A DNA stretch of 64,000 nucleotides. It comes from Octopus vulgaris (lineage: Eukaryota). Made by a program: the position numbers and the translations under genes. Shown here in pieces: positions 4,861-50,074 of this stretch. The notes under the pieces were generated by a model that was given only the letters and a program-made list of their open reading frames with translations, had not been told where the DNA came from and searched no databases. The DNA is taken from positions 72,230,001 to 72,294,000 of the forward strand of contig OX597823.1 of the NCBI GenBank assembly GCA_951406725.2, read 5' to 3'. Numbering within the stretch: the first letter of the stretch is position 1; every line of letters begins with the position of its first letter.

Positions 4861-4968
<108 letters not shown>

Positions 4969-5146
4969 TAATAAAGGGTTAAATGCAACAAGTTGCTCAA
5001 AACCACATACCGAAAATATTAGAAATAGCAGCCAAAATTGGTCAGTATTTCCTCTACTAGTAAAAAGTCTCCACAAACAAACAGAATTTGTAAGCTGTAT
5101 ATGGCAAAAAAAGGCAGAAAATAACGAAAACCCAGCCTCTGGATTA

Positions 5147-5204
5147 ATTATAGACGACTCGTTTCTGGATTAGAACCGAAGGTTCATTTCCTTGTCAATA
5201 TAAT
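5147..5204 (-). ncRNA. Type I hammerhead-like fold, variant core (mirror of 6110-6167)
   Basis: Reverse complement of 6110-6167. Confidence 0.6.
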
Positions 5205-6109
5205 ATTTCCTATAGATCTAGAAATGCTAGGGGAAAAAAACTTACCCGTTACACCAGTACGATCTGCTATATCGGACGGCTTAACGGAACTGCTAGCATT
5301 CGTACATCTATACCGACATGCGAATTCATATTTCCCTCCAAAATCTACCACGTGAGCCACAAAAACATTACCAACGAAACGAAAAATTCGGAGATAACTT
5401 GTAAGGGAGCAAAAGTATTCAATATTCAATAAAGGGTGGAATATAATTAATTTAATAAAATTAATCAATTTCACCTAGTAGATTTGTCGGTATGGAAAAG
5501 ACCATATTTGGTAAGGGTTATAATAATTATAATAAAGGGTTAAATGCAACAAGTTGCTCAAAACCACATACCGAAAATATTAGAAATAGCAGCCAAAATT
5601 GGTCAGTATTTCCTCTACTAGGTTTTCGTTATTTTCTGGCTTTTTTTGCCATATACAGCTTACAAATTCTGTTTGTTTGTGGAGACTTTTTACTAGTAGA
5701 GGAAATACTGACCAATTTTGGCTGCTATTTCTAATATTTACGGTATGTGGTTTTGAGCAACTTGTTGCATTTAACCCTTTATTATAATTATTATAACCCT
5801 TACCAAATATGGTCTTTTCCATACCGACAAATCTACTAGGTGAAATTGATTAATTTTATTAAATTAATTATATTCCACCCTTTATTGAATATTGAATACT
5901 TTTGCTCCCTTACAAGTTATCTCCGAATTTTTCGATTCGTTGGTAATGTTTTTGTGGCTCACGTGGTAGATTTTGGAGGGAAATATGAATTCGCATGTCG
6001 GTATAGATGTACGAATGCTAGCAGTTCCGTTAAGCCGTCCGATATAGCAGATCGTACTGGTGTAACGGGTAAGTTTTTTTCCCCTAGCATTTCTAGATCT
6101 ATAGGAAAT

Positions 6110-6167
6110 ATTATATTGACAAGGAAATGAACCTTCGGTTCTAATCCAGAAACGAGTCGTCTATAAT
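6110..6167 (+). ncRNA. Type I hammerhead-like fold, variant core UUGACAA
   Basis: Stem I ATTATA/TATAAT; core TTGACAA; stem II GGA..GAAC(CTTCG)GTTC..TCC; A-GAAA; stem III ACGA(G)TCGT; GUC site ending 6161. Confidence 0.6.
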
Positions 6168-6451
6168 TAATCCAGAGGCTGGGTTTTCGTTATTTTCTGC
6201 CTTTTTTTGCCATATACAGCTTACAAATTCTGTTTGTTTGTGGAGACTTTTTACTAGTAGAGGAAATACTGACCAATTTTGGCTGCTATTTCTAATATTT
6301 TCGGTATGTGGTTTTGAGCAACTTGTTGCATTTAACCCTTTATTATAATTATTATAACCCTTACCAAATATGGTCTTTTCCATACCGACAAATCTACTAG
6401 GTGAAATTGATTAATTTTATTAAATTAATTATATTCCACCCTTTATTGAAT

Positions 6452-6502
<51 letters not shown>

Positions 6503-35134: not shown

Positions 35135-35791
35135 AGAAAAATAAGTTGGCTAGCAGCGAGCTGTTTTGCCTCATACCGAAGGAATTAGAAATGGCAGTCA
35201 AAGACCGTTTTTTCATTTCTATAAGTGGAGATTCCAAAAACGAATGCCCTTGCGGCTCACATACACAAAACCGGAGTGGCAAATATACGAATTCAGTCAC
35301 TTACCGTTAATAGCGAACACGGTGTTTCTGGATCACAAACATATAAAAAATAGGGGAGTTTGAATTCCTTCTTCAGCGCTATATTCGTTAGCTTTATCAA
35401 ATGCCACCAGCCCTCACTTCTGACCCAGCGACATCAGATAGTGGGGGAAGTGCGCAGATGCTAAAACCAAGTAACGACTGGGAACGTAAATTTTCCCTCC
35501 AAAATTCTGCCATGCGCGCCTTCTGGGTAATCGTAATGGAATGAGGAATCCACATGGTAATACAATAAAAATGGTAAATAATTTTCCTGTGGTTTTTCAT
35601 GTAACCAACAATTATTTACCGGTAAATTTCGGTATGTAAATACGACAAAATAATTGTCAAGACCTTTGTAAGGTTCAGTATATAGTAAAGAAAAATAAGT
35701 TGGCTAGCAGCGAGCTGTTTTGCCTCATACCGAAGGAATTAGAAATGGCAGTCAAAGACCGTTTTTTCATTTCTATAAGTGGAGATTCCAA
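35134..35791 (-). mobile_element. Hammerhead-containing 554-bp monomer repeat (unit C), ~1.2 copies, in (TA)n
   Basis: aagaaaaataagttggc...gattccaaa at 35134 and 35688; no RT-like ORF. Confidence 0.85.
35310..35382 (-). ncRNA. Type I hammerhead ribozyme
   Basis: Minus strand: ATAGCG CTGAAGA A GGA..CAAAC(loop)GTTTG..TCC A GAAA CAC(C)GTG TT CGCTAT; GUU site. Confidence 0.85.
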
Positions 35792-36433
35792 ATATATATA
35801 TACATATACACATATGTATATATATACATATATGTAAGTATTTATATATATATATATATATATTTCATCGAAAATTTTCACCAAAAATTTTTCGAAAATT
35901 TTCACCGGTAATTTTATCCAAAATGTTTCGAAAATTTTACCAAAATTTTCACCAAAAAAATTTTCACCAAAAATTTTCGAAAAGTTGCCCCAAAGATTTT
36001 TTACCGAAAATTTTTCGAAAATTTTGCCCCAAAATTTTACGAAAATTTTCCGAAAATTTTCAACGAAAATTTTCCCCAAAAAATTTTCCCAAAAAATTTT
36101 TAGAAAAGTTTTGCCGAAAATTTTCCCCAAAAATATTTCCAAAATTTTCCTCAAATATTTTTCGAAAATTTTCATCGAAAATTTTCCCCAAAAATTTTTC
36201 GAAAATTTCCACCGAAAATTTTACCCAGTAGACCACTGTGTTTACTTTGAATAGCTACGGCAAACGTTGTAAACCATTCAGCTATGCTAGTTCTCTTTCA
36301 ACTGGAATTTAACCCCTGACCAACCCTAAATTATTGGACATTTTGGTCGTGGCCATCCCGCTTTGATGTAAATCCAATACTGCATTGTTCAGTTTGACTT
36401 TAAAAAAAAATCGGCTGCTATTTCTAACAGTTC

Positions 36434-36483
<50 letters not shown>

Positions 36484-36652
36484 AGCGGGATCAGCCATCT
36501 GAATGTGGCTAGGGACAGGGCGGGGTGGTGGGGGTGTTACTGATGCATTTAGCCCCAGGCGACTATTGACGTCACCAGAAGAGCCGACACCATCACGGTG
36601 TCCTTGCTGGCCTGCAAAGGGAGATCAGCCTCCCCGAAGATACGGATGCTAC

Positions 36653-36693
36653 ACACGGACCGGTTTCGAGGTAATCGCCTCTCGTCAGCGCAT
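36653..36693 (-). ncRNA. Minimal type I hammerhead ribozyme
   Basis: ATGCG CTGACGA GAGG(CGATTA)CCTC GAAA CCGG TC CGTGT. Confidence 0.85.
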
Positions 36694-36934
36694 GGCAAGC
36701 ACCGTTCTTCGTTGAGGGACTTCCTGTACAGGCCAGATATATATAGATTTTCACAGTAACCACAGGCACTGGCGTAGAAAATCTGTTCGAAAACAATAAT
36801 AAATCTCTGAGCGAGGTATAAACAGTAACTGCTCTTTAATATAAGCGGGATCAGCCATCTGCATGTGGCTAGGGACAGGGCGGGGTAGTGGGGGTGTTAC
36901 TGATGCAGTCCCTCAACGAAGAACGGTGCTTGCC

Positions 36935-36975
36935 ATGCGCTGACGAGAGGCGATTAGCTCGAAACCGGTCCGTGT
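36935..36975 (+). ncRNA. Minimal type I hammerhead ribozyme
   Basis: ATGCG CTGACGA GAG(GCGATTAG)CTC GAAA CCGG TC CGTGT; palindromic ACCGGT stem III; GUC site ending 36970. Confidence 0.85.
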
Positions 36976-37556
36976 GTAGCATCCGTATCTTCGGGGAGGC
37001 TGATCTCCCTTTGCAGGCCAGCAAGGACACCGTGATGGTGTCGGCTCTTCTGGTGACGTCAATAGTCGCCTGGGGCTAAATGCATCAGTAACACCCCCAC
37101 CACCCCGCCCTGTCCCTAGCCACATTCAGATGGCTGATCCCGCTTATATTAAAGAGCAGTTACTGTTTATACCTCGCTCAGAGATTTATTATATATATAT
37201 ATATATATAAATATATATATTTCACCAAAAATTTTAACCAAAAATTTTTCGAAAATTTTCACCAACAATTTTCTCCCAAAAAATCCCCAAATATTTTTGG
37301 GAAACTTTCACCGAAAATTTTAGCGAAAAATTTTACGATAATTTTCACCCAAAATTTTTCGAAAACTTTTACCGAAAATTTCAAAAATTTTTCGAAAGTT
37401 TTCAGAAACTTTTACCGATAAATTTTTCAAAAATTTCCTCAAAAAATTTTCACCGAAAATTTTCCCCAAAAATTTTTCGAAAATTTTCACCAAAAATTTT
37501 TCGAAAATTTTCCTTAAAACTTTTCGAGAATTTACCACAAAAAAGTTTTCGAAAAG

Positions 37557-37730
37557 AGCCAGCGGGGCCAAAATCACAAAATATGGGAACCCACGGTGCC
37601 AAAATCACAAAATAAGGAAAGCCATACTTTGTGATTTTGGCACCGCAAGGTTTCCATACTTTGTGATTTTGGCACCGCTGGCTTTCCATACATTGTGATT
37701 TTGGCACCGCTGGTTTTCCATACTTTCCAT
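37557..37730. repeat. 32-bp minisatellite foldback
   Basis: cagcggtgccaaaatcacaaagtatggaaagc units reverse orientation near 37620; longer copy at 46861-47170. Confidence 0.85.
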
Positions 37731-38224
37731 AATTTTCTCTAAAAATTTTTCGAAAATTTTCACCAACAATTTTCAGAAAATTTTCACCGAAAATTTTACC
37801 CAAAAATTTTTCCAACATTTTCACCGACAATTTTCCCCAAAAATTTTTCGAAAATTTTCACCAAAAAATCTTTCGAAAATTTTCCGTAAAAATTTTCCGT
37901 AAAAAGTTTTCGAAAATTTTCACTGAAAATTTTACCAAAAAATTTTTCGAAAATTTTCCCCAAAAATCTTTCGAAGATTTTTTGGGAAAATTTTCGGTGA
38001 AAATTTTTCGAAAATTTTGGCCCAAAATTTTTCGAAAATTTCTGCCGAAAATTTTTCCAATAAATTTTTCGAAAATTTTCCCCAAAAATTTTCCAGAAAA
38101 ATTTTTTGAAAATTTTCACTGAAAAATTTACAGAAAAATTTTTCGAAAATTTTCACTGAAAAATTTACCCAAAAATTTTTCGAAGATTTTCCCCAAAATT
38201 TTAAAAAAATTCTTTGAAAATTTA

Positions 38225-38678
38225 GTTGATTTGTTGTTTCTGAAAACTTATGATCGAATGTTAGATGGTATATAGAGGAAATTTATTTGTAAAATGAGAG
38301 GAAAATCGTATAGTATAAGCCATAGCCACCCATAATAAAAAGGAATACGGGTGGGGTACTTGTCGCGTAGACTGGATCCGGTGCGCGCATCTGTGCATCC
38401 GCGCTAGCCATCGATCCTATAGCGACTTGCGTATGCAAAACATTTTTTTTTGAAAGTAGACCACTACTAGTAGACCACTGTGTTTACTTTGAAAAGCTAC
38501 GGCAAACGTCGTTAACCATTCAGCTGCGCTCGTTCTCTTTCAACTGGAATTTAACCCCTGACCAACCCTAAATTATTAGACATTTTGGTCGTGGCCATCC
38601 CGCTTTGTTGTAAATCCAATACTGCATTGGTCAGTTTGACTTTTAAAAAAAATCGGCTGCTATTTCTAACAGTACGTA
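38225..38678 (+). repeat. ~450-bp spacer block repeated between satellite arrays
   Basis: Near-identical copies at 39453-39905 and 43211-43663, partial at 36227-36437 and 48221-48490. Confidence 0.9.
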
Positions 38679-38690
38679 TATATATACATT

Positions 38691-38732
<42 letters not shown>

Positions 38733-38768
38733 CACACATATATATATATATATATATATACATATATG

Positions 38769-38806
<38 letters not shown>

Positions 38807-41239
38807 TATATATTTCACCGAGAATCTTAACCAAACATTTTTCGAAAATTTTCACCGATAATTTTCTCAAAAAACTTTTCGAAAATTTTACCCAAGATTT
38901 TCACCGAAAATTTTCTCGAAAAAAATCCCCAAAAATTTTTGGAACACTTTCACCGTAAATTTTAACCAGAAATTTTACGTTAATTTTCCGCCAAGATTTT
39001 TCGAAAACTTTTGCCGAAAATTTTCCCCAAAAATTTTTCGAAAATTTTCATTGAAACTTTTACCAAAAAATTTTTGGAAAACTTTCACCGAAAATTTAAA
39101 CCAAAAATTTTACGATAATTTTCCGCCAAAATTTTTCGAAAACTTTTGCCGAAAATTTTCACCGAAAATTTTTGCCGAAAATATTCCCAAAAAATTTTTC
39201 GAAAATTTTCACTGAAAATTTTACCAAAAACTTTTTCCAAAATTTTCACCGAAAATTTTCCCTAACAATTTTTTGAAAATTTTTACGGAAAATTTTCCCC
39301 AAAAATTTTTCGAAAATTTTCGCCCAAAATTATTCGAAAATTTTCCCTAAAAATTTTCGAATATTTTCTCAAAAAATTTTCCACAAAAATTTTTCGAAAA
39401 TTTTCACTGAAAAATTTACCCAAAAATTTTTGAAAAATTAAAAAAAAATTTTGTTGATTTGTTGTTTCTGAAAACTTATGATCGACTGTTAGATGGTATA
39501 TAGAGGAAATTTATTTGTAAAATGAGAGGAAAATCGTATGGTATAAGCCATAGCCGCCCATAATAAAAAGGAATACGGGTGGGGTACTAGTCGCGTAGAC
39601 TGGATCCGGTGCACGCATCCGTGCATCCGCGCTAGCCAGTCGATCCTATAGCGACTTGCGTATGCAAAACATTTTTTTTAAAGTAGACCACTACTAGTAG
39701 ACCACTGTGTTTACTTTGAATAGCTACGGCAAACTTCGCTAAGCATTCAGCTATGCTCGTTCTCTTTCAACTGGAATTTAACCCCTGACCAACCCTAAAT
39801 TATTAGACATTTTGGTCGTGGCCATCCCGCTTTGTTGTAAATCCAATACTGCATTGTTCAGTTTGACTTTAAAAAAAATCGGCTGCTATTTCCAACAGTT
39901 CGTATATATACACATTTATGTATATATATATATATATATATACATATATACATATGTATATGTATATATACATATATGTGTGTGTGTATATATATATATA
40001 TAAATATATATATTTCACCAAAAATTTTTCCCAAAAATTTTTCCCAAATTTTCACCGATAATTTTCTCAAAAACTTTTCAAAAATTTTACCCAAGATTTT
40101 CACCGAAAATATTCTCGAAAAAAATGCCCAAAAATTTTTGGAAACTTTCACCGAAAATTTTAACAAAAACATTTTACGATAATTTTCCCCCAAAATATTT
40201 CGAAAACTTTTGCCGAAAATTTTACCACAAAATTATTCGAAAATTTTTGGAGAAAATTTTCACCGAAAAATTTCCCCAAAAATGTTACGAAAATTTTCCC
40301 CAAATGTTTTTCGAAAATTTTCACCGAAAATTTTACCCAAAGATTTTCACCAAAAATTTTCAGTTATGAAATTTTCAGTTATGGAAAATTTTCACCGAAA
40401 AGTTTACCCAAAAATTTACACCAAAAATTTTCAGAAAATTTTCACTGAAAAGTTTAACCAAAAATTTTTCCAAAATTTTCAGAAAATTTTGCCCAAAAAT
40501 TTTTCAAAAATTTTCACCGATAATTCTCTCCAAAGATTTTTCGAAAATTTTACCCAAGATTTTCACCGAAAATTTTCCCGAAAAATTTGCCCAAAAAATT
40601 TTGGGAAAACATTCACCGTAAATTTTAACCAAAAATTTTACGATAAAAATTTTGCATAAAAAGTTTTCGAAAATTTTCACCAAAAATTTTCCGAAAATTT
40701 TCAACGATAAAATATACCCAAAAATTTTTCGAAAATTTTCACTGAAAATTTTACCACAAAATTATACGAAAATTTTCACCGAAAATTTTATCCAAAATGT
40801 TTTCGAAAATTTTCACCGAAAAATTTCCCCTAAAATTTTTCGAATATTTTCCCCAAATATTTTTCGAAAATTTTCACCAAAAATTTTTCCAAAATTTTAA
40901 CCGAAAATTTTGCCCAAAAATTTTTCCAAAATTTTCACTGACAATATTCCCTAAAAATTTTTCGACCATTTTCACCGAAAATTTTCCCCCCAAATTTTTT
41001 TCGAAAATTTTCACCGAAAATTTTCACCAAAAATTTTTCGAAAATTTTCACTGAAAAATTTAGCCAAAAACTTTTCGAAATTTACAAAAAAATATATATG
41101 TATATATAGATTTGCATATATATATACATTACACTTACACACACTTCAAATTTACTTGCCATACATACAACTACGCACACTGGACACACACACACACTAC
41201 CACTCAACACACACACTGGCACGTTACTTACACCCCCAC

Positions 41240-41735
41240 CCTTTCCCTCCTTCCCTTCTTCCCTCCTTCCTCTTCTTTTTACCACTGACCACTCACTTGA
41301 GACTTGCTATGTCAACTACTGTTCGCCCTACCACACACACTTACATACAGACGCACGCACTAACATATACATATATTTTTTGTTTTTTATCTCGCCTCAC
41401 ACACACATACACACACGCACACGCACACACTCACACATACATACACATCATTTTTGTTACCAACCTTCCTGTCTCCACTCTTTTGGCTTTGAAAACCTAC
41501 TTTGCCCTTGTTATCCAAAACTTCCGGCCTTTCAGCATGTGTACTTCGTAAACACCAGTCGCGTTTTTTTTCCCTCTGTTCGCCCACATCAGGATCTTTC
41601 TTTCTTCTTTCTTCCTTCTCTTATGTTTCCGACGAAGAGCTCCGCTTCCATTTTCCTGAGCGCCTAATAATAATAATACTGTAATTGTTCCACGTGTTGT
41701 TGTTTTTTCTGTTTTCCCGTTTGGATTAACCTTAT
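41240..41735 (+). repeat. Pyrimidine-rich repeat, duplicated at 44372-44865
   Basis: Near-identical ~495-bp copies, both ending at (TA)n. Confidence 0.85.
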
Positions 41736-41750
41736 ATATATATATATATG

Positions 41751-42596
41751 TCAACAATTGAGGGTAAAATTAATTAATTAATCAATTTCACCAAGTATTC
41801 AGTATGCAAAGGGACCATTTAAGGCGAATTCAAATTATTACATTATATAAAAGGGCTTAGTAAAATAAATTACTTTGCCGCATACTGAACTCATTAGAAA
41901 TAGCAGCTAAAAAAACTTATTTAAAGCTATTTCCAATACTTAAAGAAAATCTCTCTCATATAGTGTTTGCTCCATTCAACTCACGAAAGTATGAGGGTAG
42001 AAACATTAAAAAATCAAATGCAAAGGTTATTTGAGAACGTACGTTTCAAGATTAGTCAGAATCGACACTTCTATCATCAGCTCAGAACTCCCTGGTTTGG
42101 ATTTGAAAGCACTGAAAGTCGGAGCATACCTTTTCGGCTTCCCATCGCCTCTGAAGATCTACTCGAAACTAACAGTGCCAGCAAATTCAAATATGCAAGC
42201 GAACAATTTCTGCTCTCCCCCTTCCACCAGCGTGGGTTAAAATCAGCAAACAACATGCTTTTTTTCGGTAAAATCCGAGGCATTAAAATAGAGGGAGATG
42301 AATTATAATTTCAACAATTGAGGGTAAAATTAATTAATTAATCAATTTCACCAATTATTCAGTATGCAAAGGGACCATTTAAGGCGAATTCAAATTATTA
42401 CATTATATAAAAGGGCTTAGTAAAATAAATTACTTTGCCGCATACTGAACTCATTAGAAATAGCAGCTAAAAAAACTTATTTAAAGCTATTTCCAATACT
42501 TAAAGAAAATCTCTCTCATATAGTGTTTGCTCCATTCAACTCACGAAAGTATGAGGGTAGAAACATTAAAAAATCAAATGCATGTTGTTTGCTGAT
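41751..42596 (-). mobile_element. Hammerhead-containing 560-bp monomer repeat (unit B), ~1.5 copies, in (TA)n
   Basis: tcaacaattgagggtaaaat at 41751 and 42311; ends with a 17-bp inverted piece (42580-42596 is the reverse complement of 42242-42258). Confidence 0.88.
42032..42084 (-). ncRNA. Type I hammerhead ribozyme
   Basis: Minus strand: TGAG CTGATGA T-AGA..GTC(GATTCT)GAC..TCT-T GAAA C(GTAC)G TT CTCA; GUU site. Confidence 0.82.
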
Positions 42597-42626
42597 ATAT
42601 ATATATATATATATGCATGTTGTTTG

Positions 42627-42700
<74 letters not shown>

Positions 42701-43678
42701 TATATATGAAAATATATATACTTTACCGAAAATTTTAACTAAAAATTTTCGAAAATTTTCACCGATAATTTTCTCCAAAAATTTTTCAAAAATTTTAACC
42801 AAGATTTTCACCGAAAATTTTCTCGAGAAGAATCCCCAAAAATTTTTGGAAAACTTTCACCGAAAATTTTAACCAAAAATTTTACGATAATTTTCCGCCA
42901 AAATTTTTCGAAAACTTTTGCGAAAATTTTACCCAAAATTTTTCGAAAATTTTCACTGAAAATTTTTGCCGAAAATATTCCCCAAAAATTTTTCGAAAAT
43001 TTTCACTGAAATCTTTAACAAAAACTTTTTCCAAAATTTTCACCGAAAATTTTCCCTAACAATTTTTCGAAAACTTTTACGGAAAATTTTCCCCAAAAAT
43101 TTTTCGAAAATTTTTCGAAAATTTTCTCCAAAAATTTTCCACAAAAATTTTTCGAAAATTTTCACTGAAAAATTTACCCAAAAATTTTTGAAAAATTAAA
43201 TAAAAATTTTGTTGATTTGTTGTTTCTGAAAACTTATGATCGACTGTTAGATGGTATATAGAGGAAATTTATTTGTAAAATGAGAGGAAAATCGTATGGT
43301 ATAAGCCATAGCCGCCCATAATAAAAAGGAATACGGGTGGGGTACTAGTCGCGGAGACTGGATCCGGTGCGCGCATCCGTGCATCCGCGCTAGCCAGTCG
43401 ATCCTATAGCGACTTGCGTATGCAAAACATTTTTTTTAAAGTAGACCACTACTAGTAGACCACTGTGTTTACTTTGAATAGCTACGGCAAACTTCGCTAA
43501 GCATTCAGCTATGCTCGTTCTCTTTCAACTGGAATTTAACCCCTGACCAACCCTAAATTATTAGACATTTTGGTCGTGGCCATCCCGCTTTGTTGTAAAT
43601 CCAATACTGCATTGTTCAGTTTGACTTTAAAAAAAATCGGCTGCTATTTCCAACAGTTCGTATATATACACATTTATG

Positions 43679-43710
<32 letters not shown>

Positions 43711-45327
43711 TACATATATATATGTATATATACATATATGTGTGTGTGTATATAAATATATATAAATATATATATTTCACCAAAAATTTTTCCCAAAAAT
43801 TTTTCCCAAATTTTCACCGATAATTTTCTCAAAAAACTTTTCAAAAATTTTACCCAAGATTTTCACCGAAAATATTCTCGAAAAAAATGCCCAAAAATTT
43901 TTGGAAACTTTCACCGAAAATTTTAACAAAAACATTTTACGATAATTTTCCCCCAAAATATTTCGAAAACTTTTGCCGAAAATTTTACCACAAAATTATT
44001 CGAAAATTTTTGGAGAAAATTTTCACCGAAAAATTTCCCCAAAAATGTTTCGAAAATTTTTCCCAAATGTTTTTCGAAAATTTTCACCAAAAATTTTCAG
44101 TTATGGAAAATTTTCACCGAAAATTTTACCCAAAAATTTTCACCAAAAATTTTCAGAAAATTTTCACTGAAAGGTTTAAACAAAAATTTTTCCAAAATTT
44201 TCAGAAAATTTTGCCCAAAAATTTTTCAAAAAATTTTCACCGATAATTCTCTCCAAAGATTTTTCGAAAATTTTACCCAAGATTTTCACCGAAAATTTTC
44301 CCGAAAAATTTGCCCAAAAAATTTTGGGAAAACATTCACCGTAAATTTTAACCAAAAATTTTACGATAAAATTTCCCTCCTTCCCTTCTTCCCTCCTTCC
44401 TCTTCTTTTTACCACTGACCACTCACTTGAGACTTGCTATGTCAACTACTGTTCGCCCTACCACACACACTTACATACAGACGCACGCACTAACATATAC
44501 ATATATTTTTTGTTTTTTATCTCGCCTCACACACACATACACACACGCACACGCACACACTCACACATACATACACATCATTTTTGTTACCAACCTTCCT
44601 GTCTCCACTCTTTTGGCTTTAAAAACCTACTTTGCCCTTGTTATCCAAAACTTCCGGCCTTTCAGCATGTGTACTTCGTAAACACCAGTCGCGTTTTTTT
44701 CCCTCTGTTCGCCCACATCGGGATCTTTCTTTCTTCTTTCTTCCTTCTCTTATGTTTCCGACGAAGAGCTCCGCTTCCATTTTCCTGAGCGCCTAATAAT
44801 AATAATACTGTAATTGTTCCACGTGTTGTTGTTTTTTCTGTTTTCCCGTTTGGATTAACCTTATATATATATATATATATATCTATGTATATACATATTC
44901 TCTAAATTTTTCGATAATTTTCACCGAAAATTTTCCCCAAAAATTTTTCGAAAATTTTCCCCAAATATTATTCGAAAATTTTCACCAAAAATTTTCCTCA
45001 AAAATTTTCACCAAAAATTTTCAGATAATTTTCACGGTGAAAATTTTCGAGAAATTTTTTGGTAAAAGTTTCAATGAAAATTTTCGTAAAATTTTTGGGG
45101 AAAATTTTCGGCAAAAGTTTTCGAAAAATTTTGGGGGAAAATTATCGTAAAATTTTTGGTTAAAATTTTCGGTGAAAGTTTTCCCAAAATTTTTGGGGAT
45201 TCTTCTCGAGAAAATTTTCGGTGAAAATCTTGGTTCAAATTTTTGAAAAATTTTTGGAGAAAATTATCGGTGAAAATTTTCGAAAATTTTTAGTTAAAAT
45301 TTTCGGGAAAGTATATATATTTTTATA

Positions 45328-45422
<95 letters not shown>

Positions 45423-45627
45423 CATATATATTTTTTTGAAAATTTTCGAAAAGTTTTTGTCTAAATTTTTCAGTGAAAATTTCCGAAAAATTTTGGGGGA
45501 AAATTTTCCGTGAAAATTTTCGAGAAAAATTTGGGAAAATTTTCGAAAAATTTTTGGAGAAAATTATCGGTGAAAATTTTCGAAAATTTTTAATTAAAAT
45601 TTTCGGGAAAGTATATATATTTTTATA

Positions 45628-45728
<101 letters not shown>

Positions 45729-46116
45729 CATATATATTTTTTTGAAAATTTTCGAAAAGATTTTGTCTAAATTTTTCAGTGAAAATTTCCGAAAAATTTT
45801 GGGGGAAAATTTTCCGTGAAAATTTTCGAGAAAAATTTGGGGAAAATTTTCGAAAAATTTTTGGAGAAAATTATCGGTGAAAATTTTCGAAAATTTTTAG
45901 TTAAAATTTTCGGTAAATCTTTGGAAAAATTTTTGGGCAAAATTTTCTGTGAAAACTTTGGAAAAATTTTTGGGTAAAACACCCAAATTTTTCGAAAATT
46001 TTCCCCAAATTTTTCTCGAAAATTTTCACCGAAAATTTTCCCCCAAAATTTTTCGGAAATTTTCACTGAAAAATTTAGACAAAAACTTTTCGAAAATTTT
46101 CAAAAAAAATATATAT

Positions 46117-46251
<135 letters not shown>

Positions 46252-46460
46252 TATATATAAAAATATATATATTTTCCCGAAAATTTTAACTAAAAATTTT
46301 CGAAAATTTTCACCGATAATTTTCTCCAAAAATTTTTCGAAAATTTTCCCCAAATTTTTCTCGAAAATTTTCACGGAAAATTTTCCCCAAAATTTTTCGG
46401 AAATTTTCACTGAAAAATTTAGACAAAAACTTTTCGAAAATTTTCAAAAAAATATATATG

Positions 46461-46547
<87 letters not shown>

Positions 46548-46860
46548 TATATATAAAAATATATATACTTTCCCGAAAATTTTAACTAAAAATTTTCGAA
46601 AATTTTCACCGATAATTTTCTCCAAAAATTTTTGAAAAATTTGAACCAAGATTTTCACCGAAAATTTTCTCGAGAAGAATCCCCAAAAATTTTGGGAAAA
46701 CTTTCACCGAAAATTTTAACCAAAAATTTTACGATAATTTTCCCCCAAAATTTTTCGAAAACTTTTGCCGAAAATTTTTCCCAAAAATTTTACGAAAATT
46801 TTCATTGAAACTTTTACCAAAAAATTTCTCGAAAATTTTGACGGAAAATTTTCCCCAAAT

Positions 46861-47170
46861 TATGGAAAGCCAGCGGTGCCAAAATCTTGAAGTATGGAAA
46901 GCCAGCCGTGCCAAAATCACAAAGTATGGAAACCCAGCTGTGATGAAATCGCAAATTATGGAAAGCTAGTGGTGCTAAAATCACAAAGTATGGAAAGCCA
47001 GCGGTGCCAAAATCACAAGATATGGGAAGACAGCGGTGCCAAAATCACAAAATAAGGAAAGCCATACTTTGTGATTTTGGCACCGCTAGTTGTCCATACT
47101 TTGTAATTTTTGCACCCCTGGCTTTCCATACTTTGTGATTTTGGCACCGCTAGTTTTCCATACTTTCCAT
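46861..47170. repeat. 32-bp minisatellite foldback
   Basis: About six forward units then three inverted units, switching near 47062. Confidence 0.85.
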
Positions 47171-48692
47171 AATTTTCTCTAAAAATTTTTCGAAGATTTT
47201 CACCAAGAATTTTTAGAAAACTTTTACTGAAAAGTTTTACCCAAAAATATTTCCAAAAATTTCACCGAAAATTTTACCCAAAAATTTTTCCAAAGTTTTC
47301 ACCGACAATTTTCTTAAAAATTTTTCGAAAATTTTCACCTAAAATCTTTCGAAAATTTTCCAAAAAGTTTTCGAAAATTTTTACCAAAAATTTTCCGAAA
47401 ATTTTTAACCGATAAAACACTGAAAATTTTGCCACAAAATTATTCGAAAATTTTACCCAAAAATGATTCGGAAATTTTCCCGAAAATTTTCGAAAATTTT
47501 CGATAATTCTCTCCAAAAATTTTTCGAAAATTTTAACCAAGATTTTCACCGAAAATTTTCTCCAAAGATTTGCCCAAAAATTATTCGAAAACTTTCACAG
47601 AATATTTTAACCAAAAATTTTACGATAATTCCGCAGAAATTATTCGAAAACTTTCACCGAAAATTTTAACCAAAAAGTTTACGATAATTCTCCCCCAAAA
47701 TTTTTCGAAAACATTTGCCGAAAATTTTCCCCAAAAATTTTTCGAAAATTTTCACTAAAACTTTTACCAAAAAATTCTTCGAAAATTTTCCCTAAAAATT
47801 TTCAATAAAATGTTTTCGAAAATTTTCACCAAAAATTTTCTCCGATAAAATATACCCAAAAATCTTTCGAAAATTTTCACTGAAAATTTTACCACAAAAT
47901 TATTGGAAAATTTTCACCGAAAATATTCTCCAAAATTTTTCGATAATTTTCACCGAAAATTTTCCCCCAAAATTTTTCGAAAATTTTCCCCAAATATTAT
48001 TCGAAAATTTTCACCAAAAATTTTCAGATAATTTTCACTGAAAGTTTTACCCAAAAATTTTTTCAATGTTTTCACAGAAAATTTTGCCCAAAAATTTTTC
48101 CAAAATTTTCACTGACAATTTTCCCCAAAAATTTTTCGAAAATTTTCACTGAAAAATTTACCACAAAAATATTTCGAAGATTTTCCCCAAAAACTTTTGA
48201 AAAATGTTTTGAAAAATTTTGTTGATTTGTTGTTTCTGAAAACTTATGATCGACTGTTAGATGGTATATAGAGGAAATTTATTTGTAAAATGAGAGGAAA
48301 ATCGTATGGTATAAGCCATAATAAAAAGGAATACGGGTGGGGTACTAATCGCGTAGACTGGACCCGGTGCGCGCATCTGCGCTAGCCAGCCGATTCTATA
48401 GCGACTTGCGTATGCAAAACATTTTTTTTTTAAGTAGACCACTACTAGTAGACCACTGTGTTTACTTTGAATAGCTACGGCAAACTTCGTTTGTTTTTAA
48501 CCAGACGTAAAGTAACCCTTTACTTCATAGAAATGTTTTATTTCTACGTGGGGGCAATTTGTTTATTATAAGTTTACGTTGAAGAGACTTGGTCGTTGAC
48601 AGGAGCCTCATAAGTTAACGCAGTGTACCATTTCATACGAGGCAATTAGTGTTATCTTCGTCTGTGATCTGTCACTGTACTACTTTTCCTTT

Positions 48693-49108
<416 letters not shown>

Positions 49109-49111
49109 TTA

Positions 49112-49144
<33 letters not shown>

Positions 49145-49172
49145 CACATATGTATATATATATACATATATG

Positions 49173-49203
<31 letters not shown>

Positions 49204-50074
49204 TATATACATGGGTACTTTTCTACAAGCGTGGTCCCGGTGCTAGCTAATCGTGACTAGTCGATCTTACGAAGACTATATAACGCGAGTGCGCGACTAA
49301 AAATCACACTCGCATGCGCTAGACATGTATGAGGTTTTTTTTAACAAATGATCTTTTTTAAACAAAGAAAATAAAACAAAGTAAGTAATTTGTTTTGTTG
49401 AGTCTTTTATTTACTTTGTTTTAGACAAAATCCATTTTTTTATTTATATATTCAGACATTATATACATATATTATTATGCGCGCACCTGTTAATTTGCAT
49501 ACTTGCGCTTGGTAGTCGTTAAAAGATCGACCAGTTACGACGGATTAGCACGAGTGCGCGCACCGGGACCATTGTTTTTGAGTAGCACCTTTGGTAGAGT
49601 ATGGAGGACTTGTTGGAGAAAATTTTCGAAAAATTTTTGGGGAAAATTTTGTGAAAATTTTCGAAAAATTTTTGTGTGAATTTTTCGGCAAAAATTTTCG
49701 AAAAATTGTTGGTGAAAATTTTTGGGTAAAATTTTCGAAAAATTTCTGGCTAAAATTTTCGGAAAATTTTTGGTGAAAATCTTTGGGTAAAATTTTCGGT
49801 GAAAATTTTCGAAAAATTTCTGGGTAACATTTTCGGTGATAATTTTCGGAAAATTTTTGGGTAAAATTTTCGGCAAAAGTTTTCGAAAAATTGTTGGTGA
49901 AAACTTTTGGGTAAAATTTTCTGTGAAAATTTTCGAAAAATTTCTGGGTAACATTTTCGGAAAATTTTTGGGTAAAATTCTTGGTGAAAATTCTCGAAAA
50001 ATTTTTGGAAGATTTTCCCCCCAAAATTTTGAAAATTTTTCGAAATATACTATAATTATATATATACATATATT

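Follow-up and report, generated by a model that had tools for sequence, protein, structure and literature searches.

How did the 360-nt hammerhead-bearing element at 36477–37192 reach its present site, and was a self-cleaved RNA circle its template? Non-LTR retrozymes and their likely origin from Penelope-like elements (PLEs) have already been published (PMC7229834; bioRxiv 10.64898/2026.07.22.740005). On whether PLEs move animal retrozymes, and whether the circle or the ribozyme is needed for it, these reports offer co-occurrence, pLTR homology, and a model.

We analyzed the element within a 64,000-nt stretch of Octopus vulgaris DNA (hereafter the window) and searched the genome (2.8 Gb, 227 contigs) for its relatives. 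Our main conclusion, with a probability of roughly 0.85, is that a non-autonomous 360-nt retroelement with a hammerhead was recently inserted at this locus, having been moved in trans by a PLE RT/GIY-YIG protein. The element is of a kind already known; its copies show the mode of movement unusually clearly, the family gives direct anatomical evidence of PLE-type insertion, and there are hints in the copies that movement may proceed without self-cleavage.

The window locus is a head-to-head insertion into (TA)n

The element is a head-to-head insertion flanked by (TA)n on both sides (Table 1), with unit positions m1–m360 numbered along the reverse complement of 36477–36836. Because the same flank occurs three more times in the window without the element, 36477–37192 represents an insertion into (TA)n. 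The host region (35863–50000) is a large AT-rich satellite of 12- to 13-nt units with interspersed 208- to 453-nt blocks and (TA)n, and the element lies inside one of these blocks.

Table 1. Features of the element and its surroundings (window positions; m, position in the unit)
Feature	Position	Strand	Basis
(TA)n target, left flank	36435–36476	.	
Left arm, 431 nt: m290–360 then m1–360; 3' end is the short end point (m360) at 36477	36477–36907	-	
Complete 360-nt monomer m1–360, non-coding, GC 50.8%	36477–36836	-	
Partial second unit m290–360, 2 private mismatches; 5'-truncated end of left arm	36837–36907	-	
Head-to-head junction, 1-nt overlap (m290 / m116)	36907	.	
Right arm, 286 nt: m116–360 then m1–41; 3' end is the tail end point	36907–37192	+	
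41-nt "tail" m1–41; at one end only; best conserved part across related families	37152–37192	+	
Right-hand (TA)n of the target; a target duplication, if present, would be masked by the microsatellite	37193–37220	.	
Minimal type I hammerhead: C3-G8 core, stem I 6 bp, stem II 4 bp, palindromic helix III ACCGGT; predicted cut 36658/36657	36652–36694	-	motif + covariation
Second hammerhead copy: private G.G mismatch in stem II (36957); predicted cut 36970/36971	36934–36976	+	
Paralogous site without the element; 208-nt flank shared with the insertion site, followed by (TA)n and satellite	38469–38813	+	
Two further paralogous empty sites	39696–40013 and 43454–43775		

An earlier note on this DNA had described a GC-rich monomer with an exact 360-bp period. 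The offset is indeed exactly 360, and the sole direct repeat at that offset spans just 71 nt (36477–36547 versus 36837–36907, 2 mismatches), giving 1.2 units on the minus arm and no array. The base composition is rich in GC relative to the window only, and the right end falls at 37192 rather than 37191 (ambiguous within TA), while the start at 36477 stands. The near-identity of the arms was borne out, with one difference in 245 positions (36477–36721 versus 36907–37151) and one in 278 in a wider comparison of arms, as was the continuation of the right arm across the start of the left one, into m1–41. The 1/278 divergence compares with 1.2% between arms of one locus and 3.7% between loci across the family, and together with the three empty sites it agrees with the recent insertion proposed earlier.

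The two hammerheads of the locus face apart, with no two in the same sense; thus, no monomer or circle can be released from the locus itself, and as a source of circles this copy is a dead end. Its read-through RNA would be a single long hairpin. The locus is an ordinary copy, a young member of a dispersed family.

A self-BLAST of the element found no other match in the window at E ≤ 1e-3, in line with the earlier statement that it is unrelated to a 560-nt family. The latter is probably the second hammerhead family that we observed at 4965–6459, which has a period of 561, lies head to head in (TA)n, and carries a U3-A8 minimal hammerhead at 5198 (-) and 6116 (+); its anatomy is the same as that of the 360-nt unit and its sequence is unlike. 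Direct repeats with periods of 554 and 560 were also seen at 35135–35792 and 41751–42582, with a hammerhead-like motif at 42080 (-).

Each unit carries a type I hammerhead

Both arms carry CTGACGA, a 6-bp stem I, GAAA, and the palindrome ACCGGT, with a predicted cut between GTC and CGTG. The minus arm (core at 36688, 4-bp stem II) has the complete canonical minimal hammerhead previously ascribed to the element, while on the plus arm (core at 36940) the fourth stem II pair is broken by the mismatch at 36957. An Rfam search of the element returned no hammerhead match, either at the gathering score or at E ≤ 10; the call rests instead on covariation. Over 25 chosen hammerhead variants of related families, a sample in which kinship of the sequences inflates the test, 95% of cells were paired (0 of 500 shuffles as high), and 25 cells were changed on both sides, at 6 of 13 pairs, the 3-8 pair among them. 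In the family as a whole, each unit holds a type I hammerhead with a conserved core, in which the 3-8 pair is mismatched in some lineages.

The fold of the 360-nt unit (z = -3.49) is more stable than those of 100/100 shuffles. All five hairpin pairs named in the earlier note are present in the sequence, and four of them form in the minimum-energy fold, the exception being GGGAG/CTCCC. The predicted ground state mispairs the hammerhead core. By prediction, the hammerhead fold of a circular monomer lies 5.7 kcal/mol above the ground state; in a dimer, the double hammerhead lies 13.5 kcal/mol above it, yet is 9.7 better than two single hammerheads.

The unit belongs to a dispersed non-coding family

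Searching the genome with the unit yielded 2428 candidates, of which 40 were scored and gave 149 matches. Among the matches listed, full-length units were 95 to 100% identical and lay on many contigs. Tandem arrays consist of exact 359- to 360-nt units, with up to 5.6 units per arm and a longest arm of 2013 nt (locus L152). Exact patterns gave 104 occurrences for the core context of the window copy and 88 for the unit junction, a wider hammerhead pattern gave 784, and a 16-letter core of the tail gave 3671 compared to 2 for a control. We also found related non-coding families with 354- to 356-nt units, 65 to 78% alike, which have the tail and the layout in common with the 360-nt unit. Compared to family D, which was found through its hammerhead, the tail is 92% identical and the body 75%; in one copy met by chance, 37 of 38 nt of the tail were identical. 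In one related family, the 3' hairpin plus tail makes up a 119-bp minisatellite of seven units (L211:548-1262).

The longest stop-free frame in tandem units has 115 codons, consistent with the non-coding, retrozyme-type monomer proposed before. Judged by sequence and distribution, the family would be classed as a non-coding non-LTR retrozyme with dispersed copies and tandem arrays. In contigs of four runs presumed to be RNA, the unit was covered in pieces, and two of them contained the head-to-tail joint 36835->36477, which genomic tandems also yield. Our literature search found no report of retrozymes in octopus and no account of this family; supplements and Repbase could hold entries.

Copies end at two fixed points, one at each side of an insertion

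The 3' ends of the copies fall at two fixed points, m357–360 (short) or m40–48 (tail), separated by 41 to 45 nt and mostly located beside (TA)n. We scored 33 loci. Twenty-one of them were two-armed and head to head, and 19 of these had one tail end and one short end (exceptions, L003 and L012), while independent choice of ends would predict at most 50% of such mixed loci. The 12 one-armed loci ended at the tail in eight cases and at the short point in four. The pattern was kept by 5/5 further two-armed loci among the matches listed. It was kept as well in an out-of-sample set of 14 loci chosen from C3·A8-core matches and window-core-context matches, where all 12 two-armed loci had one end of each kind; since L258 and L259 have one junction in common, 11 of these cases are independent.

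The 5' ends are truncated elsewhere than at the ribozyme site. None of 54 lay at the cut site m180 in the first sample, which was weighted toward long copies, and none did in the 14 out-of-sample loci; no end at the ribozyme cut occurred in any copy scored. The arms meet at junctions (n = 20) with an overlap of 1 to 6 nt in nine, a blunt joint in five, and 2 to 13 extra nt in six. Target duplications of ~7 to 12 bp were present at all three non-TA sites inspected. Family features matching PLE insertions thus comprise 5' truncation, an inverted 5'-truncated copy, an AT-rich or microsatellite target, and target duplication. The 41- to 45-nt offset of the head-to-head arms is the PLE "tail." What had been described as circularly permuted arms is therefore a fixed offset between two insertion ends, which alone is no evidence for a circle.

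Hammerhead core variants have been amplified

For a lineage with a C3·A8 core (CTGACAA), we counted 28 motifs; they occupy 19 places, spread over 12 contigs, and two of the places are one duplicated insertion. In the 17 of 19 places examined, 161A was linked to this core in all, and 163A, 204T, and 270G in most. These common markers indicate that the core change was inherited, and they rule out recurrent CpG decay as its origin in the copies, as distinct from the master. In a tree of 50 units rooted toward family D, the basal position of U3-A8 copies was well supported (96/92, 99/98). The C3-G8 group to which the window copy belongs was nested within C3·A8, a weakly supported placement (82/67, 80/75) in a tree whose bootstrap had not settled. 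In an abundant related family, 72 to 77% alike (L134-L151), the core pair is a U3·G8 wobble. Thus, all four 3-8 combinations (C3-G8, C3·A8, U3-A8, and U3·G8) have been amplified.

In active cores, C3 pairs with G8 and covaries to U3-A8 (PMC3884650, PMC3088659, PMC4209133). By analogy with this pairing (PMC3884650, PMC3088659) and with G8C and C3G mutants (PMC11167929), a C3·A8 core would be expected to be catalytically dead; our literature search found no cleavage rate for it. C3·A8 RNA could possibly be cut in trans within a dimer.

The template was a circle or an uncut multimer

The left arm of the window copy holds m42–115, which are absent from the right arm, and the right arm runs from m116 to m360 and on into m1–41, a run absent from the left arm. 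Neither is a continuous copy of the other; thus, two separate runs on RNA were needed. Across 18 loci, arms within a locus differed at 62 of 5017 positions (1.2%), compared to 3.7% between loci, and arms of one locus have their haplotype and private variants in common. This likeness may reflect one template, one source, or later conversion. At L023, one arm carries C3·A8 and the other C3-G8; the difference at the core implies two templates or a later change.

Because arms run across the cut site and are longer than one unit, the template was a circle or an uncut multimer and not a linear cut monomer. One possible reading, which we consider doubtful on balance, takes it to be a circular 360-nt monomer that the hammerhead cuts out, that is then ligated, and that is copied by rolling-circle reverse transcription, so that cleavage is required. 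Consistent with this, arms longer than one unit run unbroken across the cut site (431 nt in the window, 2013 nt in L152), compensatory changes preserve the hammerhead in families 65 to 78% alike, some loci have private variants in every unit (L021, L074), and coral, mussel, and axolotl retrozymes form circles of 170 to 400 nt (PMC7229834). An uncut multimer, however, accounts for the long arms equally well. Moreover, in three of the four arrays with three or more resolved full units (nine loci tried), variants recur in non-adjacent units, and in the L253 array they follow a three-unit period, a pattern that a single monomer circle does not predict. The recurrence favors a mixed multimer as template, although duplication after insertion could give the same pattern. 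The mixed units in long arrays and the C3·A8 lineage, with its spread over contigs, together speak against the view that the template has to be a monomer circle formed by self-cleavage.

Arm anatomy argues against fold-back priming

We judge it very unlikely that the inverted arm arose by fold-back self-priming or later gene conversion, with the tail end as a real RNA 3' end and a LINE-type protein moving the element. Self-priming has been suggested for PLE inversions (PMC3846280), very short hairpin copies do occur (L104, L109), and a TTTT run lies at m44–47, beside the tail end. However, the short-ended arm is the longer one in the window copy and in L008, L016, L019, L025, and L072, and such an arm could not have been produced by folding back and copying the other. 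The two fixed ends, the lack of poly(A), and arrays that run through the T run are also unlike LINE-type priming as generally understood.

Young PLE families are present, and none shares sequence with the retrozyme

The genome holds at least three young RT + GIY-YIG families, with proteins of 781 aa, 784 aa, and one known from a 574-aa fragment. All three have a (TA)n target, a minimal hammerhead, an optional tail of ~30 to 35 nt, and head-to-head inversions. A zinc-finger-like motif before the nuclease suggests that they are Neptune elements, as labeled in PMC8557442. Very young families (L068:81-3784, L061, and L203) have many intact ORFs (781, 784 aa) and full-length tandems; those of the 784-aa family are spaced 4.4 kb, the ORF being repeated with the element. 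The 781-aa family has a second frame of ~480 aa upstream, overlapping the RT frame and with a weak Pfam hit, which is unusual in a single-ORF class.

No autonomous PLE with a retrozyme tail or body was found in ~60 GIY-YIG loci by BLAST and profile search, a survey in which the Pfam model is biased toward Neptune-like ends. In 150 partly overlapping family loci with flanks of 1.5 to 3 kb, there was neither a PLE coding end sense-upstream of the tail or hammerhead nor a 360-nt unit serving as pLTR of a coding element, the finding that the earlier note had named as contrary to its proposal. The widely spaced hammerhead pairs and tail-pattern loci examined were without a PLE partner, and no PLE protein match was found in the window or between tandem units. 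The tails of the three active PLE families resembled the retrozyme tail no better than shuffles did (p 0.19, 0.92, 0.29); a likeness to the tail of the 781-aa family was rejected on the first of these values. It is the insertion anatomy that points to a PLE protein as the probable mobilizing enzyme. A degenerate RT-core fragment of a different PLE type was observed at L240:2400-2905, where a DNA search matched only another repeat inside the fragment.

That the copies are merely 5'-truncated 3' ends (pLTRs) of an unseen autonomous PLE is highly improbable: the insertion anatomy is that of PLEs (PMC8557442) and a truncated retrozyme unit of a related family directly follows the L240 fragment, but arrays of the 360-nt unit, with up to 5.6 repeats, contain no ORF between one hammerhead and the next, whereas an autonomous element repeats with its ORF, hammerhead spacings of 1380, 1630, and 3580 bp are local duplications without PLE protein matches, and the PLE matches near tail loci L099, L015, L150, L215, and L232 are on the opposite strand, have their own ends, or are not C-terminal.

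A model for movement by a PLE protein

Movement of the retroelement in trans by a PLE protein could proceed as follows. A tandem array elsewhere would be transcribed, and its hammerheads may cut as dimers. The PLE protein would bind the conserved 3' signal and cut a (TA)n or AT-rich target on both strands, at points ~10 nt apart. The cut ends would prime reverse transcription at m357–360 or m40–45, in keeping with the pattern of ends seen, and use of both strands would give one arm from each. The two runs would use a common RNA, or RNAs from a single source, as template and continue through the ribozyme site and past one unit to a random stop, a step for which the arms give partial evidence. 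The truncated ends would then be joined head to head, often via microhomology. Against this model count the two of 21 loci that depart from the end rule and a hammerhead that is not the predicted ground state; the identity of the arms could also stem from gene conversion after insertion.

A bolder version, to which we give a little less than an even chance, is that the retrozyme is a SINE-like passenger of PLE proteins, moved from uncut or multimeric RNA with no need for ribozyme cutting. A C3·A8 master, between the older U3-A8 and the present C3-G8, would have left ~18 insertions; the three-unit period of L253 would record multimeric templates; and the near-strict one-tail rule would reflect a single asymmetric complex that ties each of the two cut strands to an RT start of its own. 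If movement is independent of the ribozyme, the latter would be kept for another stage, e.g., RNA persistence as a circle. The natural core variants (C3-G8, C3·A8, U3-A8, and U3·G8) beside young PLE families with intact ORFs make the question testable with short RNAs and one purified protein.

Comparison with known systems

Like the animal non-LTR retrozymes described by Cervera and de la Pena 2020 (PMC7229834) and Li, Clavereau, and Pollet 2026, the family has a non-coding unit within 150 to 450 bp, one type I hammerhead, and dispersed monomers plus tandem arrays without LTR, PBS, or PPT, and it co-occurs with autonomous PLEs. Its 360-nt unit falls within the 350 to 390 bp of mussel units, and its GC content (50.8%) is at the upper edge of the <45 to 50% stated there. 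The window locus lacks the two consecutive units with hammerheads by which Li 2026 defines an active element. The main texts of PMC7229834 and Li 2026 are silent on fixed two-point ends, head-to-head inversions, and (TA)n targeting, and their retrozyme-PLE link is one of co-occurrence and pLTR homology; ours is one of insertion anatomy, with no homologous pLTR found. A counted one-tail rule in retrozymes was not found in the literature, although supplements and Repbase could hold one. Plant LTR retrozymes differ in having a type III hammerhead in LTRs and a 4-bp target duplication, compared to type I and ~7 to 12 bp here.

PLE insertions are known to form partial tandems, with an inverted 5'-truncated copy and a 30- to 40-bp tail often at one end only (PMC8557442, PMC3846280), and non-autonomous PLEs with head-to-tail copies are already in print (PMC8557442). 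Endonuclease-bearing PLEs (Arkhipova 2013, PMC3846280; Craig 2021, PMC8557442), including non-autonomous Chlamys elements such as MRC1, resemble our family in 5' truncation, partial tandems, inverted copy, one-ended tail, microsatellite targets, and target duplications near 10 bp. The family differs from them in having no ORF, a tail of 41 to 45 nt, and one tail per insertion counted as nearly strict. An autonomous PLE has an RT + GIY-YIG ORF between pLTRs, which is absent here.

For Poseidon of the green anole, in vitro work identified two internal RT starts that correspond to the tail ends, cutting and extension of both strands, and insertion by ribozyme mutants (Frangieh 2024, PMC11167929). 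Shared features are an AT-rich target and a hammerhead upstream of the RT starts, which in Poseidon is dispensable for insertion in vitro. In Poseidon, the signal lies within the ORF and the strands are alike in start site; here, the element lacks coding sequence, and a start shared by the two arms of an insertion is very rare. Last, metazoan PLE minimal hammerheads (Cervera and de la Pena 2014, PMC4209133) likewise have a palindromic helix III suited to dimer cleavage and include both C3-G8 and U3-A8 cores, the U3-A8 covariation being reported also by Perreault 2011 (PMC3088659). In contrast to them, the stems of our family are of canonical size (6 and 4 bp), and C3·A8 and U3·G8 lineages have been amplified too.
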